A stretch of DNA of 64,000 bases from a virus (lineage: Duplodnaviria > Heunggongvirae > Uroviricota > Caudoviricetes), in the IMG/VR virus record IMGVR_UViG_3300033148_004507; one strand, given 5' to 3'. Under the pieces are notes generated by a model. The model saw only the letters and a list, made by a program, of their open reading frames with translations, had not been told where the DNA came from and searched no databases. Both the position numbers and the translations under genes were made by a program. This document shows positions 3,001 to 35,958 of this stretch, in pieces; the first letter of the stretch is position 1, and each line of letters starts with the position of its first letter.

Positions 3001-3382
3001 AACGAATGGTGTTGCTGTACTGGATGGTACGGGGTCAATAGATTCGGATGGCTCGATAATAAATTATACTTGGGAATTCACATATAATGGAAGCCAGGTT
3101 AACTTATGGGGCATTGCACCTCAGTTCAATTTCGCTATTGACGGCACTTACGATGTTGTACTGACTGTCACAGACAATGATGAACTAATTGGAATTGGCA
3201 ACGTAACCATAACAGCCAATAGCATGATTCCCGATGGTGGTGGGGATGGTGGCGATGGGGATGGCAACACAACGAATACAATTGATAAAACAACCCTGTT
3301 GGCGATATTCGTAATAGTGGTATTGGGTATTCTGGTATTGTTCATAGCCATGAGGAGAAGTGAGGCACGAATGTTGGATTGA
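1..3382 (+). CDS. PKD-repeat cell-surface protein, 5' partial (frame open to window edge), C-terminal TM anchor
   Basis: 1118-aa ORF; ~12 tandem ~86-aa modules each with DGSGSxDxDGxIxNYTWxF...VTDxD signature (PKD/Ig-like); Gly/Asp-rich linker then hydrophobic helix LLAIFVIVVLGILVLFIAM + RR tail; no N-terminal signal peptide at GTG26 so true start likely upstream. Confidence 0.8.
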   Translation, partial: IYKGANQDVNGSDGFRDNSYITGSAGASTDHYPFMDWPIVVQRINADAGTDDIVYLGIHTFDGSGSNIVIGSITNYTWTFTDIVPQTLYDVSPIYDFSSLGDYNIMLTVTDGNGNYSFDNVTITVDDMITNAGPDQISKRLVTFDGSGSMDDGSIQNYTWSCTNYVGFTDLWGVNPSFDFNVSGIYYVMLTCEDDIGNLGYDNMTVTIIIISPVADMGLDQSWLREIHTLNGSSSYDSDGDIINYTWTFIDVIPQILYGINPQYDFTNLGNFEITLEITDNDWRVDTDTAWFNISNQLPMADAGPDQNTKRLVTFDGSGSDDSDGLIANYTWTFTYDSTPQELWGVSPVFDFNVSGIYDVMLTVMDNDGAMAFDNVTITISISPPVANAGTDQGTTKGTYVFDGLSSDDSDGSIVNYTWTFNYDGPIQELWGVSPSFDFDIDGIYTVMLKVTDDDWRSDYDNMSVIINYVNPIANAGIDQDTKRLVIFDGSGSDDPDGLIANYTWTFNYDGTPHELWGVSPMFDFNISGVYGVVLMVTDDNNLIDFDDVTITINIVEPIANAGLDQSGFKRLYSLDGSGSSDSDGLIVNYTWSFIYDGVPRTLYGINPSFEFNITGDYEITLNVTDDDWRCDDDVMWVHITNLNPIADAGMDYTTKRLVTLDGSGSSDPDGWITNYTWNFTYDGSFVELWGENPVFDFNIGGLYVIVLTVTDNDNSTSFHIMRLTIVIQTPVADAGLDQVGYKREYWLSGSSSYDSDGIIANYTWNFTYDGSPVVLVGMSPSFIFNITGTYEITLNVTDDDGRYATDTILIGVNNKLPVADAGPDRIAKRFVAFDGSGSSDSDGSIANYTWIFTFDGMQRVLWGISPIFDFNIGGVYAITLQVTDDDGDISVDSSKITTNILFPSANAGINQTGFSGVYCLNGSLSSDLDGVIVNYTWTFDDGGGRVLFGIYPQYDFHNTGSHEITLVVRDDDARMSVDTVYVDIIDRGYPIADAGLNQTTNGVAVLDGTGSIDSDGSIINYTWEFTYNGSQVNLWGIAPQFNFAIDGTYDVVLTVTDNDELIGIGNVTITANSMIPDGGGDGGDGDGNTTNTIDKTTLLAIFVIVVLGILVLFIAMRRSEARMLD
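390..3230 (+). repeat. in-frame tandem DNA repeats, period ~258 bp, ~11 full units (PKD modules)
   Basis: P[IV]A[DN]AGxDQ ... NYTW ... VTDDD blocks recur at ~258-bp spacing (approx. 397, 643, 900, 1156, 1417, 1675, 1935, 2195, 2455, 2713, 2975). Confidence 0.7.
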
Positions 3383-3388
3383 TAAAAT

Positions 3389-3415
3389 GAGCAAAAACTA
3401 TTTGAGTATAATGGA
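3389..3415 (+). promoter_or_regulatory. BRE/TATA-like promoter variant (GCAAAAACTATTTGAGTATAAT)
   Basis: resembles the recurring GCAAAACTATTTATACT cassette; ~15-40 nt upstream of ATG 3428. Confidence 0.4.
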
Positions 3416-3427
3416 GTATTGAGAAGT

Positions 3428-5666: not shown

Positions 5667-5813
5667 ATGGTAGCAGAAGAGGGTGGCGTAAAACTAAAAT
5701 GTCCACGGAAATTGTGTTTGCACGTTTGGACGTTTCGGGGTAAAGCAAAGTTCTACACATCATGCCCAATTTGTAAGACATCAGTAAGGGTTAATCAGGA
5801 GAGGGTAGGATGA
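5667..5813 (+). CDS. 48-aa zinc-ribbon protein (not in ORF track)
   Basis: ATG 5667...TGA 5811-5813, frame-checked; CPRKLC ... CPICK; TTTTATATAAAG TATA-like box at 5637; stop overlaps HNH start (ATGA). Confidence 0.45.
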   Translation: MVAEEGGVKLKCPRKLCLHVWTFRGKAKFYTSCPICKTSVRVNQERVG

Positions 5814-6223
5814 AAAGGGGGTCGGCCCAATATAAAAAATGGCGAGAATCTGTGTTGATTAGGGATGAATATACTTGTCAACATTGTGGATTTAAACCTC
5901 ATATCTTAGATATTGGTATCGTTGCTCACCATATATTAAATTATAAAACTTACCCTCTATACAGGTATGACTTGAATAATGGGTTAACATTATGTCATAA
6001 ATGTCATAGGAGACAACACCCAACCTGTATGGGTTCTAAATTTATTCTATATAAAAAAGTTATTGAATTTAAGAATGGCAAATGTGGTGTAGATGTACCG
6101 TTGCATTGGGCGGGAAGAAAGATATTGGTGTATAAAGTAGGTAAATATGGTTTAACTCTACCTACAAAAGATGAATGTATAATGATAGATTGCGGAGATA
6201 GTTATCTGGAAGGTGTGGAATGA
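5810..6223 (+). CDS. HNH endonuclease
   Basis: CQHCG...VAHHI...NNGLTLCHKCH: CxxC-HH-N-CxxCH HNH signature. Confidence 0.8.
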   Translation: MKRGSAQYKKWRESVLIRDEYTCQHCGFKPHILDIGIVAHHILNYKTYPLYRYDLNNGLTLCHKCHRRQHPTCMGSKFILYKKVIEFKNGKCGVDVPLHWAGRKILVYKVGKYGLTLPTKDECIMIDCGDSYLEGVE

Positions 6224-6957
6224 TGAAAATCGATACCAAGATAACTAAAATCATCAAGGATTCTGAGGTCATCAGCATCACCAATGTCGGTAGCCACTTA
6301 TGGGGTATGAACCACGAAAACAGTGATGTAGATTATGGTCTTATCTACGTGGCCCCAAGTAGAAACATATTGCGTGGCAATGCCTTCACAGAATCTAAGC
6401 AGGTTGAAATAGGTAATAATGATTGGACAATCCATGAGCTTGGAAAGACTGTGAACATGCTAATGAAAGGCAATGTAAACTATGTCTGGATTGTAACATC
6501 GCCGTTGTCTTTACTATCTACTCTTTATATCGAAGAATTAAAAAAATTATATTTGAATAATATGTCTGCTAACATTTATCACAATATCAAAGGATTGGCA
6601 AAACACAATTACAAGAAATATTTGGTTGAGGGGAGGCTAGCTGATGGTGAACCATATTCGAATCTTGATAAGAAACGAAAGATAATCATTCGCACTCTTA
6701 AATTCGGTATTAATCTACTGGATGGTAATGGGATAATATATGAGCCAGTGGAGGGCGAAGTTAACGATAATCTAGTTAGACAATTCATGGATAATCTGGA
6801 AAATGCATATGAGCATACATCATTGCCAGAGAATCCAGACCGTGAAAAATATTATGATTATTTGGAAGATGTAAGAAGATACTTGTGTCAGCGACCACTC
6901 CGTGACTGGCATTGGTCAGGAGATGACTCTGAGAACTCAGACTCATGCGTTGATTAG
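6220..6957 (+). CDS. Pol-beta superfamily nucleotidyltransferase (minimal-NTase/KNTase-like, 245 aa); last ~25 codons lie inside the IscB-element left end
   Basis: GSHLWGMNHENSDVDYG = GSx9-11DxD NTase motif; size and helical C-terminal half resemble KNTase-type enzymes. Confidence 0.6.
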   Translation: MMKIDTKITKIIKDSEVISITNVGSHLWGMNHENSDVDYGLIYVAPSRNILRGNAFTESKQVEIGNNDWTIHELGKTVNMLMKGNVNYVWIVTSPLSLLSTLYIEELKKLYLNNMSANIYHNIKGLAKHNYKKYLVEGRLADGEPYSNLDKKRKIIIRTLKFGINLLDGNGIIYEPVEGEVNDNLVRQFMDNLENAYEHTSLPENPDREKYYDYLEDVRRYLCQRPLRDWHWSGDDSENSDSCVD

Positions 6958-8339
6958 GAGGCGACAAGAAACATGAAAACTATGCAAAAGTTAGAAGGGC
7001 GAGATACATACACACCTACGGATGCTCCACAAGTCCGTAGCCACTGTGATTCTGTGATTAAACATGACTGCGAGGTAGGTGAAGTGTTACAGGATTTAAA
7101 AACCCTTTCTAACAACTCCGATGTGGACTTACTCCAGCATACAGGAGGGCTTAAGGCCACTGTGTATGCATATGTGCTAAACAAGAACGGGAAACCACTG
7201 ATGCCCTGCAAGCCTGCCAAAGCAAGGCATTTGTTGAAGGAAGGCAGGGCAGAGGTGGTCAATAGGACTCCCTTCACGATTCGCTTATTATGGGATTGTG
7301 AAGATAATGTGAAACCAATAACACTTGGCATCGATGCTGGATATGGCAAAGTTGGTTTTAGTGCCGTATCTGATAAGAAAGAATTGGTGTCTGGGGAACT
7401 GACTTTAAGGAAAGGCATCTCCAAACTGATAGAGCAGAGAAGTAACTATAGAAGGACACGAAGGAACAAACTCTGGCATCGGCCACCTAGATTCCTTAAC
7501 AGAGCTAAACATAAAGGCTGGCTTGCACCTAGCATCCAACACAAGCTTGACAGCCATGTAAGACTTATCGAACAGATGAAATCAATCTTGCCGATAACAA
7601 ATGTTATTGTCGAGGTTGCGAATTTTGACATCCAGAAGATAAAGAATCCAGACATTAAAGGAGTCGAATACCAACAAGGGGAGCAGATGGGCTTTTGGAA
7701 TGTTGGAATGTTCGAGAGTATGTCTTACACAGAGACAACCATACTTGTCAGCACTGTAAGGGTAAAAAGAAAGATAAGATATTACAGGTGCATCACATCA
7801 ATAGCAAGAAAGAGGGTGCTACAGATAGGCCAGAAGAGTTATTGACAGTCTGTAAGACCTGCCATGATGGGCATCATGATGGTATCGATATAATACCAAT
7901 GAAGGAAATCAAGAACTTCAAGCCAGAGACTTTCATGACGATGGTTCACTGGAAGCTCACAGAATTATTGGATTGTGAACACACGTTTGGTTATATCACA
8001 AAAACCAATAGAATTAAGCAAGGTCTTGAAAAGAGCCATGTCAATGATGCATTTATCATTGCGGGTGGGGCAAAGCAGGAACGGTGCTTGCCACATGATG
8101 TCAAGCAAGTAAGACGAAACAATAGGTCAATACAGATGAATCGAAAGGGTTACAAGCTAGCAATAAGAAGAAAAAGATATAAATTACAACCAAATGATTT
8201 AGTAAGGTTTGAGAGGGTCAAACGCCGAGTCAAAGGAGTACACTGTTATGGTTCAAGAGCAATATTAGATAATAAGAAATCAGTTGCAATAACTAAAATA
8301 AAGTTGATATGCTATGGTAAGGGGATATGTTATGTGTAA
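6880..8339 (+). mobile_element. IS200/IS605-type non-autonomous element carrying iscB (copy 1); left boundary approximate
   Basis: ~95 nt upstream of ATG 6973 (TCAxCGACCAC ... TCTGAGxAxTCAGACTxxTGCGTTGATTAGGAGGC) plus the entire ORF are repeated at 13230..14553; homology ends exactly at the stop codons; no tnpA present. Confidence 0.7.
6973..8339 (+). pseudogene. iscB: IscB (OMEGA RNA-guided nuclease, Cas9 ancestor), frameshifted by an 8-bp tandem duplication
   Basis: PLMP domain (NGKPLMPCKPAKARHL); RuvC-I ITLGIDAGYGKVGFSAV; Arg-rich bridge helix RSNYRRTRRNKLWHRPPRF; RuvC-II ITNVIVEVANFD; HNH CQHCKGK...QVHHIN...CKTCHDGHH; RuvC-III HVNDAFIIAGG. TGGAATGT duplicated at 7696-7703/7704-7711 splits the ORF into 6973..7845 and 7695..8339; removing one copy restores ...FWNVREYVLHRDNHTCQHC... 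in frame. Confidence 0.85.
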
Positions 8340-9556: not shown

Positions 9557-10051
9557 ATGGAACATAAGATTACAAAAGACGATGTTGAAACATTGATGGG
9601 GCATGGCAAACTACATCTGCCAAATGACGATTGGTTGATATTCTATTATAATACTATCGAGTGTCCGACCTGCGAGGGTAAGGGTGAAGTTCGGGAAAGG
9701 GATGGCTCACGGTTTCGTGGTGACGGCCATTTACACATGAATAAGTGTAAGCCATGCAACGGCACAGGCCGAGTACCCAAGACCTATCGCATATCATGTC
9801 CCAAGTGCAAGGAAACCAGGGATATGGCCTTTGACGGGAACTGGCAATGTACTGTGTGTGGTTATGAGTTTTCAGGCAATCCTCCACACATGATAAAGGA
9901 AGTACCCAAGCCACATCAATGCGATAAATGTTATTGGATTAGGTCTGAAATAGAAACAATATTGGGCATGGGTTATAATGAGGAAGAGATGATAGAAAGA
10001 TTGAATGTTCTTAAGAATGATATAGCTCCCAAGCCACAGGGGGGGAAATGA
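9557..10051 (+). CDS. DnaJ-type CxxCxGxG zinc-finger protein (paralog 1 of 3)
   Basis: ECPTCEGKGEV ... CKPCNGTGRVPK plus further CxxC pairs; ATG 9557 after GGGGGAT SD; C-term ...APKPQGGK encoded by AAGCCACAGGGGGGG junction. Confidence 0.6.
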   Translation: MEHKITKDDVETLMGHGKLHLPNDDWLIFYYNTIECPTCEGKGEVRERDGSRFRGDGHLHMNKCKPCNGTGRVPKTYRISCPKCKETRDMAFDGNWQCTVCGYEFSGNPPHMIKEVPKPHQCDKCYWIRSEIETILGMGYNEEEMIERLNVLKNDIAPKPQGGK

Positions 10052-13120: not shown

Positions 13121-13229
13121 TGAGTTTTGCAGGGTATGGTGTACAACCAGAAGATTTCTGCTATTTATTCACACCGGATGAAGGGATGTATGAGGAGTTA
13201 AAATGAGTCGAGAATTGGTATACATCTGT

Positions 13230-14553
13230 GAGCTTGGTAAGGGTGAGTCAACGACCACACAGAACAGAAATGGTCTGGGGGCGAGTCTGAGCAATCAGAC
13301 TTGTGCGTTGATTAGGAGGCAATGAAAAGAATGAAAACCATGCAGAAGTTAGACGGGAGAGATACATACACACCTACGGATGCTCCACAAGTCCGTAGCA
13401 ACTGTGATTCTGTGATTAAACATGACTGCGAGGTAGGTCAAGTGTTACAGAGTTTGAAAACCCCGTCTAACAACTCCGATGTGGACTTACTCCAGCATAC
13501 AGGAGGGCATAATGCCACTATGTATGCATATGTTATAAATAAGAATGGAAAACCACTGATGCCCTGCAAACCTGCCAAAGCAAGGCATCTATTGAAGCAA
13601 GGTAGAGCCAAAGTAATCAACAGGAAGCCATTTACAATCCGACTATTATGGGATTGTGAAGATAATGTGCAACCGATTACGCTAGGCATCGATGCAGGCT
13701 ATAGCAAAGTTGGTTTCAGTGCCGTGTCTGAGAGTAAGGAATTGATGTCTGGGGAGCTAACATTACGAAAAGGCATCAATAAACTCATCGAGCAGAAAAG
13801 CAACTATAGAAGAACAAGACGGAATAAACTTTGGCATCGCCCACCGAGATTCCTGAACAGAGCCAAACCAAAAGGTCGCCTACCTCCGAGCATCCAACAT
13901 AAGCTCGACAGCCATATTAGGCTTGTCGAACAAATGAAAGCAATCCTGCCGATAACAAATGTTATTGTCGAGGTTGCGAATTTTGACATCCAGAAGATAA
14001 AGAATCCAGACATTAAAGGAGTCGAATACCAACAAGGGGAGCAGATGGGCTTTTGGAATGTAAAACCTGTCATGAAGAGCATCATGCGGGTATTGATATA
14101 ATCTCAGCAGTGGCAATCAAGAACTTCAAGCCAGAAACCTTTATGACGGTGGTTAATTGGAAGCTTACAGAACTATTAAATTGTGAGCATACCTTTGGCT
14201 ACATCACGAAGCATAATAGGATTAAGCAAGGTCTTGCAAAGAGTCATGTAAATGATGCGTTTATAATTGCAAGAGGTCATAGTCAGGGGCGATGCAAATA
14301 TTATGAAGTCAATCAAACGAGGAGAAATAATAGAAGCATACAATTGAATCGAAAAGGCTATAAACCATCTATCAGAAGAAAAAGATATAAGCTCCAATCC
14401 AATGACTTAATTAGAGATTCACAAAACAACACTGTTCTGAGAGCAAAGGGTGTATGCTCATATGGGCGGTCAATAAAATTGGAAGATGGGAGATATACAA
14501 ATGTTAAAAATATAAAATTAATATGTTATGGTAAAGGGATATGCTATATATGA
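13230..14553 (+). mobile_element. IS200/IS605-type iscB element (copy 2), left boundary approximate
   Basis: direct repeat of 6880..8339 (by-eye ~85% identity); preceded by a 200-nt noncoding stretch 13121..13321. Confidence 0.7.
13322..14553 (+). pseudogene. iscB: IscB copy 2, inactivated by ~139-bp out-of-frame deletion removing the N-terminal half of the HNH domain
   Basis: same PLMP/RuvC-I/bridge/RuvC-II as copy 1, then ...FWNV | KTCHEEHH...HVNDAFIIARG; CQHCKGK...QVHHIN segment absent; ORF split into 13322..14101 and 14053..14553 at the same TGGAATGT site as copy 1. Confidence 0.8.
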
Positions 14554-15052: not shown

Positions 15053-15300
15053 AAGGTGTTGAAGCTGTAGTCAAATCCATGCTCTATGCACTGGTTGGTG
15101 TTATGGTAGTTATGGTTGTTATGTCATTCTACTTCATGTATTGCGCATATCGGGCATTTCAAATCGGAACCGATATTGGCAACTTTGTTGGTGGGGCATT
15201 GTTGGTACTGTCTGGGGCCATATTACTTGGGTCAATTGGAATCCAGCAATTTGTGTTCCCGTTGTTGGAGATTAAAACAGATGGTGGTGAAAAAGAATGA
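15049..15300 (+). CDS. small membrane protein
   Basis: 83 aa, 2-3 hydrophobic helices. Confidence 0.5.
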   Translation: MKGVEAVVKSMLYALVGVMVVMVVMSFYFMYCAYRAFQIGTDIGNFVGGALLVLSGAILLGSIGIQQFVFPLLEIKTDGGEKE

Positions 15301-15773
15301 AAATCCCAGATAGAATAAACTATAGTGCCTTGAACTTTCCGATATGTAATTTCGTGGTTCTTGAGGAGGCTGAGAGGTTGATAATACCTGATTACCAGAG
15401 AGATTATATCTGGTCTGATACTCAGAAGGGGTTGTTGATAGATAGCATCTTTAAAAGCATACCGATTGGCAATATATTCCTTAACGAGAGGGGTGGCAGT
15501 CCAGCCTATGAAATTATTGATGGTCAGCAAAGACTTACTACACTATTTAAGTTCATGAATGATGAGTTTGCTTACCAGGATGTGTACTACAGTGAATTGC
15601 CAGATAAGTACACTGCGAGGATAAGTCATTTCGTAGTCCAGACTTATATCACTTACTACACAGATGTTAAGGACATCCTCAGATTGTATTATGTATTGAA
15701 TTGGGCAGGGACACAACATAATGTGGAGGAGATGATTAAGCTTAAGAGGCAGGCGGGTGAAGAGGATGGATGA
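15297..15773 (+). CDS. DUF262 (ParB-like, GmrSD N-terminal-type) domain protein, stand-alone
   Basis: IIPDYQRDYIWSDTQKGLLIDSIFKSIPIGNIFL...EIIDGQQRLTTLFKF: canonical PxYQRxYxW and DGQQR motifs; no DUF1524/HNH nuclease partner domain. Confidence 0.8.
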   Translation: MKIPDRINYSALNFPICNFVVLEEAERLIIPDYQRDYIWSDTQKGLLIDSIFKSIPIGNIFLNERGGSPAYEIIDGQQRLTTLFKFMNDEFAYQDVYYSELPDKYTARISHFVVQTYITYYTDVKDILRLYYVLNWAGTQHNVEEMIKLKRQAGEEDG

Positions 15774-29969: not shown

Positions 29970-30329
29970 ATGGGTGAGGATGATAAGATTGAGAGGGGCG
30001 AAGTGATTCATCTGGTGCTAACGATTGTAGTTGTGATAGTTATGGCATTGGTTACTTGGGGATTCTTCAATTTCATGGAAGATAGGATGGCAGAGCCAGA
30101 ATATACGGAATATGATTTCGCATTAGGTAATACGACAGTAAAATATAATGGCGAGACTCTGAAAATCAAAATCAGAGACGAAGGCTACTATAAGATTTCA
30201 AAAGTTTATGAGAAAACCAATTCTTCAGAACATTGGTCGGGATGGGATTTAGGGGAAGCTCCACTCGATGAAAGAATAAATGGGGTTAATGTCGTTGAGG
30301 GTTACCAACGAGAAGTTAATTGGTACTAA
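29970..30329 (+). CDS. membrane-anchored protein
   Basis: ATG 29970 right after upstream TGA; TM helix VIHLVLTIVVVIVMALVTWGFF. Confidence 0.5.
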   Translation: MGEDDKIERGEVIHLVLTIVVVIVMALVTWGFFNFMEDRMAEPEYTEYDFALGNTTVKYNGETLKIKIRDEGYYKISKVYEKTNSSEHWSGWDLGEAPLDERINGVNVVEGYQREVNWY

Positions 30330-30348
30330 TTAGCTAAAAACTAATTGG
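30317..30348 (+). promoter_or_regulatory. cluster of palindromic CTAATTAG-family sites (TTAATTGG, CTAATTAG, CTAATTGG)
   Basis: at the transition from + strand array to minus-strand island; same motif family at 35745-35865 and 60656-60735. Confidence 0.45.
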
Positions 30349-30355
30349 TAGATAT

Positions 30356-30775
30356 TTATTTTCCGCCCTTGTTTGTGACGATTCTCTTTTTTATGTATGG
30401 ACAGCCCCTATTGATGATATACAAATCATCTCTTCCCCAATAATCATTTTTACATTGAGTATTATACAAAGGTTTGTGTGTGAAAATCAAAAAATTTTCA
30501 ACATCTCTAATTAATAATTTGGTGATTCTTTGATAATCTGATTTCTCAATATACCCTAACCAGAAAGATAATCCTTGTGTATTCATATCAAAATCTCGTA
30601 GGTTATTTTTAATTTCAGCAACCACATCCATGTGGTAGGCAATACCCATGTAGATTATTCCTCGCCCTCTTTGAAAAGCATAGAAATATGCATCCTCATA
30701 TTCTCTCAATTTACTATATGGTACTTTCACCCAATTAAGTGTCATTCCCTTTTTTGGTTTCACTTTTATTTTCAT
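30356..30775 (-). CDS. hypothetical protein (minus strand)
   Basis: start chosen at MKIKVKPKK preceded (in minus sense) by GGTGAGAGGTGG SD; track ORF extends to 30871. Confidence 0.45.
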   Translation of the reverse strand: MKIKVKPKKGMTLNWVKVPYSKLREYEDAYFYAFQRGRGIIYMGIAYHMDVVAEIKNNLRDFDMNTQGLSFWLGYIEKSDYQRITKLLIRDVENFLIFTHKPLYNTQCKNDYWGRDDLYIINRGCPYIKKRIVTNKGGK

Positions 30776-30921
30776 ATTCCACCTCTCACCGATATATGGA
30801 TGAGAAGCGAAAGGCATTTGGGGAAAGAGAATGGCTTGAATAATTAACAATAATAATTCTCCGCCCCTCACTTCTCAACATATGCATAATTTCGCACAAT
30901 ATAAATGTTTTTGACCATTTA

Positions 30922-31680
30922 TTAAGGCAACTCTTTTCTACAGCTCCCACAGAAATTGTAACCATTTGGATTGGTATCTCCGCAATACGGGCAAAACTTG
31001 TCTATCTTATCGTCTCCAGGTACTAAATTATCATTGTCGTCTATCTTATCATCATCGTACTCTTCCTCTGGTAATCCATATTTTGCAATAAGCTCTGCAC
31101 CAACTGAAACAAGAATTCCACCTATGACACATAGCACCCATCCATATCTTAAGCCTAGTATACTCATTGCTTCGCCAAATGAAATGTCATTAGAAAGAGA
31201 AACAATGTAGAATCCATGTATTAAAACACCTTGGGAAATCAAAGCGATTAAGAATCCTCCAAGATATAGCAATCTACACACATAATATTCTCTTACGGAT
31301 AGAACAATCATGAATAGTATGGCACATAATCCTGCAATCATTGGTAAAAAGTCAAGATACCAGATGTCAAAATAAAGACCAATATTCCATCCAGTAATCC
31401 CACCATAAATTCCATTATAAAATGGCTCAGACATCCCTCTAAAGAATAATATGATTCCAAAGAAGCCAACAGCAGTGCCTATCACAAGAAAAATTGGAGT
31501 TTCTCTATCACCAAAAACTATAGTCTCTTCTTTGACAGACTCATCAGATACAATCATTAAAAACCCAAATATACATAAAAGAAATGATATAGGAAAACTA
31601 ATGTCTACCCACCAGAATAAAAGGCATATTACTGCTAATATAAACATGAATGACCCGATTATACCCAGTTTAATCCTCAT
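30922..31680 (-). CDS. polytopic membrane protein with C-terminal zinc ribbon
   Basis: 6-7 TM helices; C-term FCPYCGDTNPNGYNFCGSCRK; GGTGA SD upstream. Confidence 0.6.
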   Translation of the reverse strand: MRIKLGIIGSFMFILAVICLLFWWVDISFPISFLLCIFGFLMIVSDESVKEETIVFGDRETPIFLVIGTAVGFFGIILFFRGMSEPFYNGIYGGITGWNIGLYFDIWYLDFLPMIAGLCAILFMIVLSVREYYVCRLLYLGGFLIALISQGVLIHGFYIVSLSNDISFGEAMSILGLRYGWVLCVIGGILVSVGAELIAKYGLPEEEYDDDKIDDNDNLVPGDDKIDKFCPYCGDTNPNGYNFCGSCRKELP

Positions 31681-31694
31681 CTCTTCACCGTAAC

Positions 31695-32324
31695 CTAGTC
31701 ATCAAACCTCTTATTTCGTTTATTGACTGCATATAATGGAACTATAATTGCAGGTAATATCGCCATAGTACACACTTCCCCACCAGTATCTTCTCCACCA
31801 GTATCTCCACTAGAACCTCCTCCTGTGTCATCTCCTGTAATAACCACAGTATCATCACCGTTATCCACGACAGAATCCTTGATTATCTGGATAGTGTAGG
31901 TGTATTCCTTAGTGGTTGCAATATCCCATTCAGACCACACACCTTCTTCTGATGCAATTACTTCGATTGTAGCTATATGACTTCCAATATCTACTTGGAA
32001 TTCACTAGGCACAGTTACTTCCCAGGAGAAAGTATAGCTATTCCCTGCTTCTACAATAACACTCGTTTGACTGGATGTATAGCCAGTCATAGCTAAATTC
32101 CAATCAAAAAATAGGTGTACTCTCTCAACCCTCAATGATTCAGAATATGTGTTTGTCAGTACGTATTTAAAAGTATACGCATAATTATTCTTGATACCCT
32201 CTGTTGGCTCTAGTGTTCCAGATACTTCCCATTTATCATATCCCTCAACTGGAATGGCTATTATAATCATTCCTAGGATTATTAGCCAAACTACAATGAA
32301 TCCATATTTTCCCACGATTCTCAC
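31695..32324 (-). CDS. secreted/surface-anchored protein (signal peptide, Gly/Asp/Thr linker, C-terminal TM)
   Basis: N-term FIVVWLIILGMIIIAIPV, DTGGGSSGDTGGEDTGG linker, MAILPAIIVPLYAV + NKRNKR tail; GTG start. Confidence 0.55.
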   Translation of the reverse strand: MRIVGKYGFIVVWLIILGMIIIAIPVEGYDKWEVSGTLEPTEGIKNNYAYTFKYVLTNTYSESLRVERVHLFFDWNLAMTGYTSSQTSVIVEAGNSYTFSWEVTVPSEFQVDIGSHIATIEVIASEEGVWSEWDIATTKEYTYTIQIIKDSVVDNGDDTVVITGDDTGGGSSGDTGGEDTGGEVCTMAILPAIIVPLYAVNKRNKRFDD

Positions 32325-32348
32325 CTAATCGCCTAATGCTGGAAAACT

Positions 32349-32372
32349 ATTTTAAAGTATCCATACGGTACG
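32349..32372 (+). promoter_or_regulatory. promoter-cassette variant GGAAAACTATTTTAAAGTAT in divergent intergenic region
   Basis: resembles GCAAAACTATTTATACT; ~45 nt upstream of GTG/ATG 32415-32420. Confidence 0.4.
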
Positions 32373-32414
32373 CATACCACAGAATACCACATATAGAGAA
32401 AGGACAATCTGGAA

Positions 32415-32606
32415 GTGATGCCAAAGGAATCAAAACGCTATAAATACAAAACAGTAACACTTCCAGAGCCACTCATGGAAGAAATCAAACAATTCATTGA
32501 TGACCATCCCGAACTAGGATATGGTAGTGTTACTGAGTTCATTAAAGAGGCATCTCGTGGTCAAATGAAAGAGTATTATCTTATTATGAAGATGAAGATG
32601 AAGTAG
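32415..32606 (+). CDS. ribbon-helix-helix (CopG/Arc-like) DNA-binding protein
   Basis: KRYKYKTVTLPEPLMEEIKQFIDDHPELGYGSVTEFIKEA = beta-strand + two helices typical of RHH regulators. Confidence 0.55.
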   Translation: MMPKESKRYKYKTVTLPEPLMEEIKQFIDDHPELGYGSVTEFIKEASRGQMKEYYLIMKMKMK

Positions 32607-32655
32607 TTTTGACCACAAAATCGATATATAGTCGTAATCGTTTTAGCAAAGCTAT

Positions 32656-33417
32656 ATGGCTGAAGAAAATGAAGAATGGGAAGAAATGAATAATAAAATA
32701 AAAAGAAAATTAAGTAAAGAAAATGAAGCATTAAGAAGAGAGAATAATAATTTAACTAGAGAGAACATGCAATTGAAAAAAGATAATATTGCTTACAGAG
32801 GGCAGTATAATCTTATTGATGATAGATTTTATGAAATTAATAGTCCAGAGTTGGAAGAATCAGTTATTCATAAAATTTCTGAAGAATTGATAGATGCTTT
32901 AATAAAATGCGATAAATTAGATAATGATGAATATCTATCAAGATATATGCAGATGTATATGGATAAGCCAGATGGGGATTATTATGTGTTCAATTGGGAT
33001 AAGGCAAAGAAACCAGAAAGGTTACATCGGGGAGCTTATAAATTTCTTTTATCACAACTGCCAGAGCAATTACATTTCAAGCAAGAGAGAGAATCTTCAT
33101 TGTCACATTTAGGTAAAGGTGAAAGTCCGAATGAAAGTGACATAATAGGAATTTTAACTTATTTAGATGTAGATATTGCAAAGGGAGAAAGGGGAGCATG
33201 GAATGATTTTTGGATTGATATTATATATGCAAATATAGACAATAAATTAGGATTAAAACAATCTGATATGGTTCAGAAAAGCAAAGATAATTCTCATTCA
33301 TGGGGAAAAGAACCTATTAGGCTCGCTGTAAAAACCTTAAAAGAAAATGGCCTGTTGAAGAAAAAAGGAAGTCGTTATATTATTGATAAAACAAATCTAA
33401 AGATAATCTGTAAATAA
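32656..33417 (+). CDS. hypothetical protein with N-terminal coiled coil
   Basis: 253 aa; KENEALRRENNNLTRENMQLKKDN. Confidence 0.5.
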   Translation: MAEENEEWEEMNNKIKRKLSKENEALRRENNNLTRENMQLKKDNIAYRGQYNLIDDRFYEINSPELEESVIHKISEELIDALIKCDKLDNDEYLSRYMQMYMDKPDGDYYVFNWDKAKKPERLHRGAYKFLLSQLPEQLHFKQERESSLSHLGKGESPNESDIIGILTYLDVDIAKGERGAWNDFWIDIIYANIDNKLGLKQSDMVQKSKDNSHSWGKEPIRLAVKTLKENGLLKKKGSRYIIDKTNLKIICK

Positions 33418-33419
33418 GT

Positions 33420-35200
33420 TGGACTCCTCTTCTGAAGTTGGAAAAAAGTTGTTATTTTGTTGGAAAAAAGTTGTTTTTTACACCATAATTTTGAATTATA
33501 TGGAAATAATCTGTAAATTCACATCCAGTTTAAATGCTATAAGTTTCATAAGATTATATCGCAGTCAAGAAGATTGGTGGCCTCTCGGTGAATGTCGTAT
33601 ACTATATCGAGGCTTCTTGACTGCTCTAAATCATTAAGGTGATTCCTGTAAACGAAGATGATGATGATTATGACAGCAAAACCATAAACGGCAAATGGCT
33701 ACGAAAATGTTATGCTTTACCTATTCAAACTCAACGAAAGTTGACAGATTACCAGAATGACTTAAATAATGTCAATCTGCATAGAATTAAAGTGAGGCCA
33801 GATTATTTGCGTAACCTGACCTCTGGAGCTGATAAGATGTGTTCAACAAAGTTATCAACCCCGAAGAAAGCTATGGATGAAGAGACAAATAAAAGTTTCC
33901 ATACGTTAGTCTATATGAATCCAACAGGCTTCGCTGAGGGGGAAAGTGAGCCAGGTATAAGAATGACAGTTGTAGGGAGTGAATACCCTACCTTTTATCA
34001 AAGTTTTTGGACTGAGCCAGACTTTAGTAACCCGACCAATGACAATCCGATGAGAGCATCCGAATTCTTGAGTAAACTGAATTTGGATAACGTATTAGAT
34101 GCCATTGGTCAGAAATATGGAAATAAAAAATGGCATTTCAGGTATCCTCCTGAAGCCATGATTAAGGCTTTGGTGTTCAAGTACATCAAAGGTTTGAGGC
34201 ACGATACACGCCTAGTAAGATACTTAAAAGCCCATCCCGAAGAGGCGAAATTACTAGGATTCATTGAAGTAAAAGGTGAATTGAAAATACCGAGCCAACA
34301 GACATTCAATCATTTTGTCTTGGCGAGGTTGAGGAATGAAGGATTATATGACATATTTGATAGCCTTGTATTAGAACTCAAGGATAAGATGAGTATGCTC
34401 GGTCTGCAACTGGGTAAAACTGTGTCTGTTGATTCAACGCCTTTATCGAGTATGAAGAATGACAAAGATGCTAAATACAATCCGCATTATGACATTAAAG
34501 GATATAAAGTACATAATGTGATAGATGCAGATTTCTTCCTTCCACTTGCCTTAAATTTCACTACTGCGATAGATGGGGATTCGCCACAGTATCTCCCATT
34601 GTTAGACAGATTACACACGATGGGATTTGATTTTGGGACGATTCTTGCAGATGGAGCTTATGCTTCTCTTGAACATTTTGCAATTGTACATCGGTATTAC
34701 AGAGCCAAAGCCATTTTCAAATTGAAGAAAAATAATCGTATAAGAAAAGAAGGAACATTGAAAGGAATTAAGAAGAGATATGAATCATTATGGAAAAAAG
34801 ATGGATACAAGCCAGATGCAGGAATAGATTACATGCTAGCATTCCTTTATTTTCAAGGTGATATTAAAGCGGTTGGAAGCTATTATCATAACAAGCATTT
34901 TGTGGACTGGACAAATAATTACGATGAGAAAAAGAAGGAATTTAATCAAAGGGCAGGAATAGAGGCGTTTCATGGGCATTTAAAGTATCAGATGAACCTT
35001 GAGATATTTCTTGATAAGAAAGGCATTAGAAACGCTGAAATGCACGTTCAATTGACGTATATCTCATTACTGTGCGTGGCTCTGTGCAGAGTTCAGCATG
35101 GAGTTACTGAGGGTCTTGTGAATGTGAAGTGTCTTGTTTAGGCACTTCTTCTTTATTTTTTTAAAAAATGCAAAGATTAAAGAATAGATTAAGTATTTCC
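33420..35200 (+). mobile_element. IS4/IS5-superfamily insertion sequence (boundaries approximate, terminal IRs not confidently identified)
   Basis: single DDE transposase ORF; upstream tandem TTGGAAAAAAGTTGTT x2 at 33447-33485. Confidence 0.5.
33639..35141 (+). CDS. DDE transposase, IS4/IS5 superfamily
   Basis: N-term FRYPPEAMIKALVFKYIKGL; catalytic VSVDSTP (D), ILADGAYAS (D), NQRAGIEAFHGHLK (R-x3-E-x6-K). Confidence 0.8.
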   Translation: MIPVNEDDDDYDSKTINGKWLRKCYALPIQTQRKLTDYQNDLNNVNLHRIKVRPDYLRNLTSGADKMCSTKLSTPKKAMDEETNKSFHTLVYMNPTGFAEGESEPGIRMTVVGSEYPTFYQSFWTEPDFSNPTNDNPMRASEFLSKLNLDNVLDAIGQKYGNKKWHFRYPPEAMIKALVFKYIKGLRHDTRLVRYLKAHPEEAKLLGFIEVKGELKIPSQQTFNHFVLARLRNEGLYDIFDSLVLELKDKMSMLGLQLGKTVSVDSTPLSSMKNDKDAKYNPHYDIKGYKVHNVIDADFFLPLALNFTTAIDGDSPQYLPLLDRLHTMGFDFGTILADGAYASLEHFAIVHRYYRAKAIFKLKKNNRIRKEGTLKGIKKRYESLWKKDGYKPDAGIDYMLAFLYFQGDIKAVGSYYHNKHFVDWTNNYDEKKKEFNQRAGIEAFHGHLKYQMNLEIFLDKKGIRNAEMHVQLTYISLLCVALCRVQHGVTEGLVNVKCLV

Positions 35201-35208
35201 TAATTTCT

Positions 35209-35724
35209 ATGTGCGAAAGAAAGAAAAGGCAATTATTAAATTTAATAGAAGTTCTTCTCGAAGATATTGAGAAAAATAAAGATGAATGGAACTTACCTAC
35301 CGATGATTCAGATACGCGTGAAGTGGAAGCATGGAATAGTGTACTCGCAATCCAAACAAAACAGCTTAATGATATTGTGAATAACGTTAGAAAGATGTAT
35401 GAAAATGATGAAACTTATGAATTATTAGGAGGGGTCAGGGTGCAGGAGATGATGTCATTTACACAACTATATCTCCCTGCACGAAAACTCTATGCTTTTG
35501 TGAAACATGATATTGAATATGAAGAAAACATTGAATTAAAATGGTTAAAAAATAGATATGAAGAATTAGGCATGTGGCAGAAGAAATTAGAGAAAGACAT
35601 CAAAGGTGTGCCAAATCGAGAAGAATGGGATGATTTTACACAGATGATGGAAGCCACCCTTGAGAATATCCAGACAAAAATTAATGAATTGGAAGAACTA
35701 TCTAAGAGAGGACTTGATTTGTAG
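35209..35724 (+). CDS. hypothetical coiled-coil protein
   Basis: 171 aa, helical/acidic. Confidence 0.45.
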   Translation: MCERKKRQLLNLIEVLLEDIEKNKDEWNLPTDDSDTREVEAWNSVLAIQTKQLNDIVNNVRKMYENDETYELLGGVRVQEMMSFTQLYLPARKLYAFVKHDIEYEENIELKWLKNRYEELGMWQKKLEKDIKGVPNREEWDDFTQMMEATLENIQTKINELEELSKRGLDL

Positions 35725-35744
35725 TGTAATTGAAGGTTACTAAT

Positions 35745-35865
35745 TAGCACTGAAATTTCAAGACAAATTCATAAGTTTTATATAGGTTACTAATTAGAGT
35801 CAAATCTATATTGAAATTGATACCTTTTTATAGGCTACTAATTAAAATCTACTAATTGGTAACCC
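35745..35865 (+). promoter_or_regulatory. four CTAATTAG-family sites (GGTTACTAATTAG x2, GGCTACTAATTAA, CTACTAATTGGTAACC) with TTTTATATA boxes
   Basis: CTAATTAG is itself an 8-bp palindrome; sites at 35750, 35790, 35838, 35852; upstream of phosphatase gene. Confidence 0.5.
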
Positions 35866-35958
35866 TCGTCGTTGATGACTATATTGGAAGGTCAATGATA
35901 TATCTAAGATTAGATAGGGTTGACACAGGGGAAGTTGAGTATGTGAGGGTGAATTAAT

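Follow-up and report, generated by a model that had tools for sequence, protein, structure and literature searches.

The DNA analyzed here is a stretch of 64,000 nucleotides, hereafter the window. Coding in the window is almost wholly on the plus strand and consists of many small open reading frames (ORFs), and there are numerous matches to PHROG families, among them a small terminase subunit, HNH endonucleases and an RNA ligase. The window therefore looks like a virus or a prophage. Two IscB loci are present in these 64 kb, both on the plus strand, and the only two Rfam hits in the window that exceed the gathering score are both to HEARO (RF02033), the scaffold of the ωRNA. The scaffold of copy 1 (6887-7132, plus strand) scores 90.3 bits and that of copy 2 (13247-13490, plus strand) 104.8 bits against a gathering score of 83; both matches extend over the full-length model and the scores are comparable to those of two intact relatives (91.9 and 95.2 bits). 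From the known layout of IscB ωRNAs the putative guide segments would lie directly 5′ of the HEARO scaffolds, at 6867-6886 in copy 1 and at 13227-13246 in copy 2 (both plus strand). The putative guide of copy 1 is flanking DNA within the 3′ end of the nucleotidyltransferase ORF at 6220-6957. For neither putative guide was a second match found in the window.

The IscB gene of copy 1 (7162-8339, plus strand) is a pseudogene with a single lesion, and removal of 8 nt restores an ORF of 389 aa. This repaired protein matches the Pfam family RRXRR (PF14239) with an E-value of 3e-64 and the HNH family PF01844 with 1.8e-7 (31.6 bits, cut-off 21.4), and the solved IscB chains match it with E-values from 1e-34 down to 7e-37. 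The motifs GIDAG, VEVA, HH and HVNDA are aligned with those of solved IscBs, the first two and HVNDA with those of PDB 11hr_A, and the RuvC motifs are found in both copies. Copy 2 (13520-14553, plus strand) is likewise a pseudogene. Its N-terminal part, which extends to 14061, comprises the PLMP motif, RuvC-I, the bridge helix and RuvC-II and matches RRXRR with 7e-65, and its C-terminal part, which continues in the −1 frame, comprises the second half of the HNH domain, RuvC-III and the C-terminal domain and aligns over its full length with intact relatives. There is no Pfam match to the HNH domain of copy 2, a domain that has lost its first CxxC pair and its HH motif. The presence of two IscB copies, as the original prediction had it, is thus borne out by the Pfam, solved-structure and HEARO matches, and both are genuine IscB/ωRNA (OMEGA) elements of the IS200/IS605 type. 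In neither copy, however, is the whole protein encoded in one uninterrupted ORF; both are frameshifted at the same codon and are therefore IscB pseudogenes and not working members of the family. The ωRNA genes are intact and could act only with an IscB protein supplied in trans; the window itself contains no intact IscB as a supplier.

Translation of IscB probably starts at the ATG at 13520 in copy 2 and at the GTG at 7162 in copy 1. The ATG at 13520 is favored because the sequence AGGAGG is found 13-14 nt upstream and because the N-termini of the solved IscB chains match this start; the PLMP motif (NGKPLMPC) occupies residues 9-16 in both copies and the solved chains align from residue 3. The start at ATG 13322 that had been assumed earlier has to be given up, as it lies inside the ωRNA (HEARO, 13247-13490). 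The IscB frame nevertheless has no stop over about 65 codons ahead of the PLMP start, which takes it across most of the ωRNA (6973-7161 in copy 1 and 13322-13519 in copy 2). The same upstream open frame is found in 104 of the best 120 relatives (P0001-P0120), for which gene callers annotate proteins of about 450 aa. Some relatives appear to use another frame upstream (MVEVN... versus MQKLE...), and the extension is putative.

In their architecture the two elements resemble IscB-ωRNA elements such as OgeuIscB (PDB 7xht/7utn), with the order PLMP, RuvC-I, Arg-rich bridge helix, RuvC-II, HNH, RuvC-III and C-terminal domain, with HEARO directly upstream on the same strand, without tnpA nearby, and with an apparent insertion polymorphism between related genomes. 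They are unlike OgeuIscB in that the genes are interrupted, by an 8-bp duplication and a 142-nt deletion, respectively, and in that the protein is short (389 aa compared with about 495 aa). Compared with the characterized IscBs in general, sequence identity is limited and the context is viral. IsrB, a functional relative of IscB without an HNH domain, is a nickase. Copy 2 is similar to IsrB (PDB 8dmb) insofar as the catalytic half of the HNH domain is missing while the RuvC motifs are kept. In IsrB, however, the whole HNH domain is absent in frame and a single functional ORF is present, whereas copy 2 keeps the residues CKTCHEEHH and is frameshifted. The IsrB chain (8dmb) is also matched much more weakly, with 2.6e-16, than the IscB chains are.

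The frame of copy 1 is shifted by a tandem duplication of 8 bp, TGGAATGT|TGGAATGT, at 7696-7711 on the plus strand (first unit 7696-7703, second unit 7704-7711); this sequence occurs twice in copy 1 and once in the intact relatives L040 and L042. The two copies are colinear as far as ...GGGCTTTTGGAATGT (14061), after which copy 2 continues with AAAACCTGTCATGAAGAG, which encodes KTCHEEHH in the other frame. The deletion junction lies between 14061 and 14062 and reads TGGAATGT|AAAACC, so that TGGAATGT (14054-14061) runs straight into AAAACCTGTCAT, with TGT|AAA at 14059-14064 on the plus strand as the immediate joint. The sequence of the intact relatives is ...GGCTT(C/T)TGGAATGT(T/A)CGAGAGTATGT...GT(C/G)TGTAAGA.... 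In comparison with L040, L042 or a copy 1 freed from the duplication 142 nt of the intact gene are gone from copy 2, and in comparison with copy 1 as it stands 150 nt. The deletion is out of frame because 142 = 3 × 47 + 1. The deleted segment encodes REYVLHRDNHTCQHCKGKKKDKILQVHHINSKKEGATDRPEELLTV, the first half of the HNH domain including the first CxxC pair and the HH motif, and the peptide that copy 2 has lost is REYVLHRDNHTCQHCKGK...QVHHIN...ELLTV. The TGT at 14059-14061 constitutes a microhomology of 3 nt with positions 7851-7853 of copy 1; it would amount to 4 nt (TGTA) if the ancestor had been similar to L042. Duplication and deletion each put the downstream part of the gene in the −1 frame. 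Apart from these two lesions there are no stops or frameshifts in either copy, and both align end to end with the intact relatives.

These alignments confirm two of the initial claims, namely that an out-of-frame deletion has removed the first half of the HNH domain from copy 2 and that the same TGGAATGT position is hit by a different lesion in copy 1. The pairwise alignment of copy 1 and copy 2 located both ends of the deletion together with the TGT microhomology and demonstrated that the N-terminal HNH segment is deleted and not diverged. The size of the deletion, in contrast, had been given as about 139 bp and is 142 nt according to the alignment.

Both nuclease genes were inactivated very recently, because each gene carries only one lesion and the copies show a dN/dS ratio of 0.06-0.09 relative to each other (0.066 in the N-terminal part and 0.089 in the C-terminal part). 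This is the same range as found between intact genes (0.06-0.17). Silent sites between the copies are saturated, with dS being about 1.25 outside of an identical tract described below and higher in the C-terminal part. By this substitution pattern the two elements are old, have evolved separately and were kept under purifying selection until a very recent time; they did not arise by a recent duplication.

The longest common substring of the two copies is a tract of 115 nt at 7589-7703 in copy 1 and 13947-14061 in copy 2 (both plus strand). On its right side the tract runs up to the deletion junction in copy 2 and, in copy 1, to the base that closes the first repeat unit. The remaining coding sequence is 75-88% identical, the longest identical run elsewhere being 26 nt. 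The coding regions were aligned over 1,028 sites, of which 230 are mismatched. In 20,000 shuffles a run as long as the observed one never arose; the longest was 60 when the mismatches were distributed uniformly and 51 when the codon position was taken into account. In control pairs (each copy with L040 and L042, and L040 with L042) the longest runs in the same region were 29-46 nt. The tract is not a conserved segment, because of 106 sites compared L040 deviates from it at 13 and L042 at 16, and at least nine states in the tract are common to both copies and found in neither of these relatives. Just upstream of the tract copy 1 is similar to L042 (24 differences at 188 sites) and copy 2 is similar to L040 (33 at 188). 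The tract is a recombination patch that was transferred either from one copy to the other or from a third copy into both; the differences to L040 (13/106) and to L042 (16/106) do not settle which sequence was the donor. It may once have reached into the segment that is now deleted from copy 2, and the deletion would then partly explain its end at the junction, which would be no evidence for a causal connection.

The original prediction regarded the two lesions as independent. This view is not supported, given a completely identical tract of 115 nt that ends exactly at the lesion in copies whose dS is about 1.25 elsewhere. Because the copies exchanged sequence exactly at this place, the lesions are probably not independent but linked, the causal link between tract and lesions being what the coincidence of their ends suggests.

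The closest database proteins are full-length and come from viral-type contigs (P0001 with 82% and P0003 with 78% amino acid identity), and intact IscB relatives thus exist in related viral contigs. The relatives from genomes are at most 51% identical, and the named IscB matches span Thorarchaeota, Thermoplasmata, Atribacterota and Bacteroidota; for inferring a host these matches are too scattered and the genome relatives too distant to be informative. Exact searches gave no match for either N-terminal fragment in the protein look-up, for either junction sequence in IMG/VR or for a 38-mer of the tract in the JGI metagenomes, and the intact junction sequence is absent from the GTDB genomes. Searching IMG/VR with the flanking genes for empty sites, we recovered nothing related to the nucleotidyltransferase and, for the DUF262 protein, distant relatives only (at most 38% identity). 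In one metagenomic contig (L068, ERZ1034842 NODE_20) two IscB copies lie about 3.2 kb apart, with matches at 6368-6393 and 9619-9644; their translations are identical over the examined segment of 72 residues, which extends from the motif through the HNH domain.

L040 is related to the virus studied here and has a PKD-repeat protein, a 382-aa gene and a 170-aa gene in common with it. In L040 an intact IscB element (5916-7362) is located between the PKD gene and a 118-aa gene. The window contains the corresponding empty site at 3383-3418, where the PKD-repeat gene is followed by a 113-aa gene (the genes meet at 3382/3419). The window and L040 thus differ by what appears to be an insertion polymorphism between related viruses. 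Homology among all the elements extends from the first base of HEARO to near the stop codon. The last 23 codons of the RlaP-like nucleotidyltransferase ORF (6220-6957) are encoded by ωRNA sequence, as are the last 5 codons of the PKD gene of L040 (3837-5933). From these boundaries the elements appear to insert at the extreme 3′ end of genes, where they would replace the original stop codon. Since the upstream ORFs run into the ωRNA, the guide segment is supplied by the 3′ end of the gene, and read-through transcription from that gene can presumably produce the ωRNA. A match to Y1_Tnp, the Y1 (HUH) transposase encoded by tnpA, was not found among the 83 ORFs of at least 85 aa in the window. The earlier remark that both elements lack tnpA is therefore correct for the window, but this is not a notable feature, tnpA being found near only about 1.5% of iscB genes (Meers et al., bioRxiv 10.1101/2023.03.14.532601) and its absence being the norm.

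Several other genes in the window deserve mention. A free-standing HNH gene of 137 aa (5810-6223) is situated directly upstream of the nucleotidyltransferase gene and copy 1; its Pfam HNH match is weak (6e-4), several PHROG HNH families are matched in the window, and the gene may encode a homing endonuclease. Just downstream of copy 2 there is a GmrSD_N/DUF262-like protein of 158 aa (15297-15773), the DUF262 match having been assigned to this ORF by inference. The window further matches NADAR, RNA ligase, dual-specificity phosphatase, SPFH/Band 7 and YopX, and these may be RNA-repair or counter-defence genes. A transposon of 5.57 kb (30297-35867) forms an island of low GC content (34-36% compared with about 42% elsewhere). 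It is bounded by imperfect terminal inverted repeats of 19 nt (GAGGGTTACCAA) and a 6-bp target duplication (GTCGTT). Inside it are a DDE_Tnp_1/DUF772 transposase (33639-35141) and a number of passenger ORFs, of which three lie on the minus strand. We considered whether the 8-bp duplication in copy 1 is a leftover target-site duplication and rejected this, the only DDE transposon of the window producing duplications of 6 bp.

The site of the lesions had originally been suspected to be fragile or prone to microhomology-mediated events. We surveyed 97 metagenomic IscB genes having the same motif that codes for GEQMGFWNV. In 96 of them the sequence reads in frame into REYV...HNH, and the sole exception, L059, is a pseudogene with several lesions, so that a hotspot common to the whole family can be dismissed. 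Fragility driven by structure was rejected as well, as the intact region of 190 nt folds no better than shuffled sequences (z = -0.21). A perfect inverted repeat of 8 nt is present near the lesion (within 7722-7738/7842-7858) and does not flank the breakpoints. With a microhomology of only 3-4 nt in addition, the suspicion of a fragile site is not upheld. The exception L059 (Ga0256406_1025957, about 300-2200) is an unrelated and heavily degraded IscB pseudogene with several frameshifts. Compared with L061 it lacks about 525 nt, beginning some 7 nt beyond the same FWNV motif, and an overlap of the flanking alignments by about 16 nt suggests that this deletion took place between direct repeats.

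On balance, and with some reserve, we favor the reading that two diverged transposase-less elements have recently been broken and that their lesions are connected through recombination between the copies over the 115 nt. The virus-like genome would have acquired two diverged IscB/ωRNA elements separately and without a transposase, each one sitting either at the 3′ end of an upstream ORF or behind it and taking its guide from the flanking DNA. The copies would then have recombined, either by ectopic gene conversion or by template switching during break repair or replication. The course that most simply explains all three coincidences starts with copy 2, which would lose 142 nt by a deletion at the TGT microhomology. 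Subsequently a broken or stalled strand of copy 1 would be extended with copy 2 as template, and synthesis would end at the deletion junction of copy 2, where homology to copy 1 stops. The new end (...TGGAATGT) would be joined to the right end of copy 1 (TGGAATGTTCGAG...), and with an overlap of 8 nt in this rejoining the tandem duplication of TGGAATGT would result. The order of events in which the deletion in copy 2 precedes the duplication in copy 1 is thus the one that we would favor. The reverse order, with copy 1 as template and copy 2 rejoined at TGT, is possible but gives no account of why synthesis should stop at the duplication. A short tract of perfect identity in diverged paralogues is what interlocus (ectopic) gene conversion produces, and a small templated duplication together with a microhomology deletion at the edge of the tract resembles synthesis-dependent, microhomology-mediated joining. 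Ectopic conversion pathways have been shown mainly in eukaryotes and model bacteria, whereas here the pathway is deduced from sequence alone; we consider the repair scheme plausible for this virus-host pair.

Instead of being connected, the lesions could have arisen independently and could coincide by chance or at a mild hotspot, with a slippage duplication in copy 1, an unrelated microhomology deletion in copy 2 and a separate conversion tract alongside. Lesions of both types commonly arise by spontaneous mutation, with TGT the microhomology is short, and in the unrelated degraded L059 the deletion of about 525 nt begins about 7 nt past this motif. We nevertheless consider this explanation unlikely. 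By our own estimate a random deletion would end within about 8 nt of the duplication in a gene of 1.17 kb with a chance of roughly 1-3%, the end of the tract moreover falls on exactly this base, and a mild hotspot is not indicated by a motif that is intact in 96 of the 97 relatives or by the local DNA structure (z = -0.2, not significant). It could also be envisaged that a site-specific nuclease cut both copies at one position, the candidates being a CRISPR system or another defence nuclease of the host or the product of the HNH gene at 5810-6223. Fill-in and rejoining in copy 1, microhomology end joining in copy 2 and homologous repair on the left side would then have produced the duplication, the deletion and the tract, respectively. 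Different repair outcomes at one position, the tract adjoining this position, the HNH endonuclease gene near copy 1 and the fact that both lesions change the sequence to the right of TGGAATGT would all fit with such a break. We found, however, no nuclease and no spacer; the intact junction has no exact match in the GTDB genomes, where neither a spacer nor a provirus turned up, and neither ωRNA guide matches the lesion site. Self-targeting by the elements was rejected separately, the 16-nt guides matching only their own loci at up to three mismatches except for an unrelated site with three mismatches at 5863. Moreover TGGAATGTTCGAGAG... is still complete in the duplicated copy 1, and only a target that extends more than 8 nt to each side would have been destroyed. 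A site-specific break is in our opinion distinctly improbable, and slightly more doubtful again is the statement that the shared breakpoint records a break in both paralogues with the duplication, the deletion and the tract as three repair outcomes. If this were true, nuclease targeting and escape would have left a natural footprint in a viral genome at this locus, and multi-copy OMEGA elements would be a liability for their carrier.

An artefact of assembly or polishing, in which merging of a paralogue bubble or mis-polishing homogenized about 115 nt and created false indels, must also be weighed. The copies are similar enough to mislead assemblers, the length of the tract is on the scale of assembler k-mers, and the fragments and junctions are absent from all other public records searched. 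De Bruijn assemblers, however, emit only junction k-mers that are found in the reads, the two lesions are of different kinds with clean junctions, and no errors are seen elsewhere in the two genes, whose dN/dS is 0.06-0.09. This makes an artefact very unlikely. Hardest to credit of all the explanations is a function of the interrupted state, be it selection against the HNH domain, a functional split IscB of which both ORFs are expressed, or the 8-bp repeat serving as a reversible switch. Both lesions are located at the boundary between RuvC-II and HNH, both downstream ORFs are otherwise intact and have a TTG start in the right frame, and IsrB demonstrates that relatives without HNH can work. 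But both lesions are frameshifts and not in-frame excisions, and half an HNH domain remains in copy 2. The TTG stems from a TTT Phe codon that is present in 67 of the 97 relatives, and for this reason a special TTG start of the C-terminal ORFs was discarded. Nor did inspection reveal a slippery −1 frameshift site, there being no X XXY YYZ heptamer at or after the lesion, which speaks against programmed −1 frameshifting, and two repeat units of 8 nt make a poor slippage switch. The proposal made at the outset that selection removes the HNH activity is not supported either, as the frameshifts also cut off RuvC-III and the C-terminal domain and do not leave an IsrB-like nickase.

Our analysis provides a small case study of how transposase-less IscB/ωRNA elements decay in a viral genome, with the nuclease gene being broken first and the guide RNA gene still intact. 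It is ordinary decay of mobile elements which does not reveal a new system and gives no support to an adaptive loss of the HNH domain. Two ωRNA scaffolds and a compact IscB of 389 aa that can be reconstructed are added from a poorly sampled clade, the closest relatives of this IscB being 78-82% identical and originating from uncultured viral contigs. What is new is the identical tract of 115 nt which ends at both lesions of copies that are otherwise saturated. The tract demonstrates an exchange of sequence between diverged paralogues of one genome, and on the reading that we favor a defect of one copy can in this way induce the defect of the other through ectopic repair.
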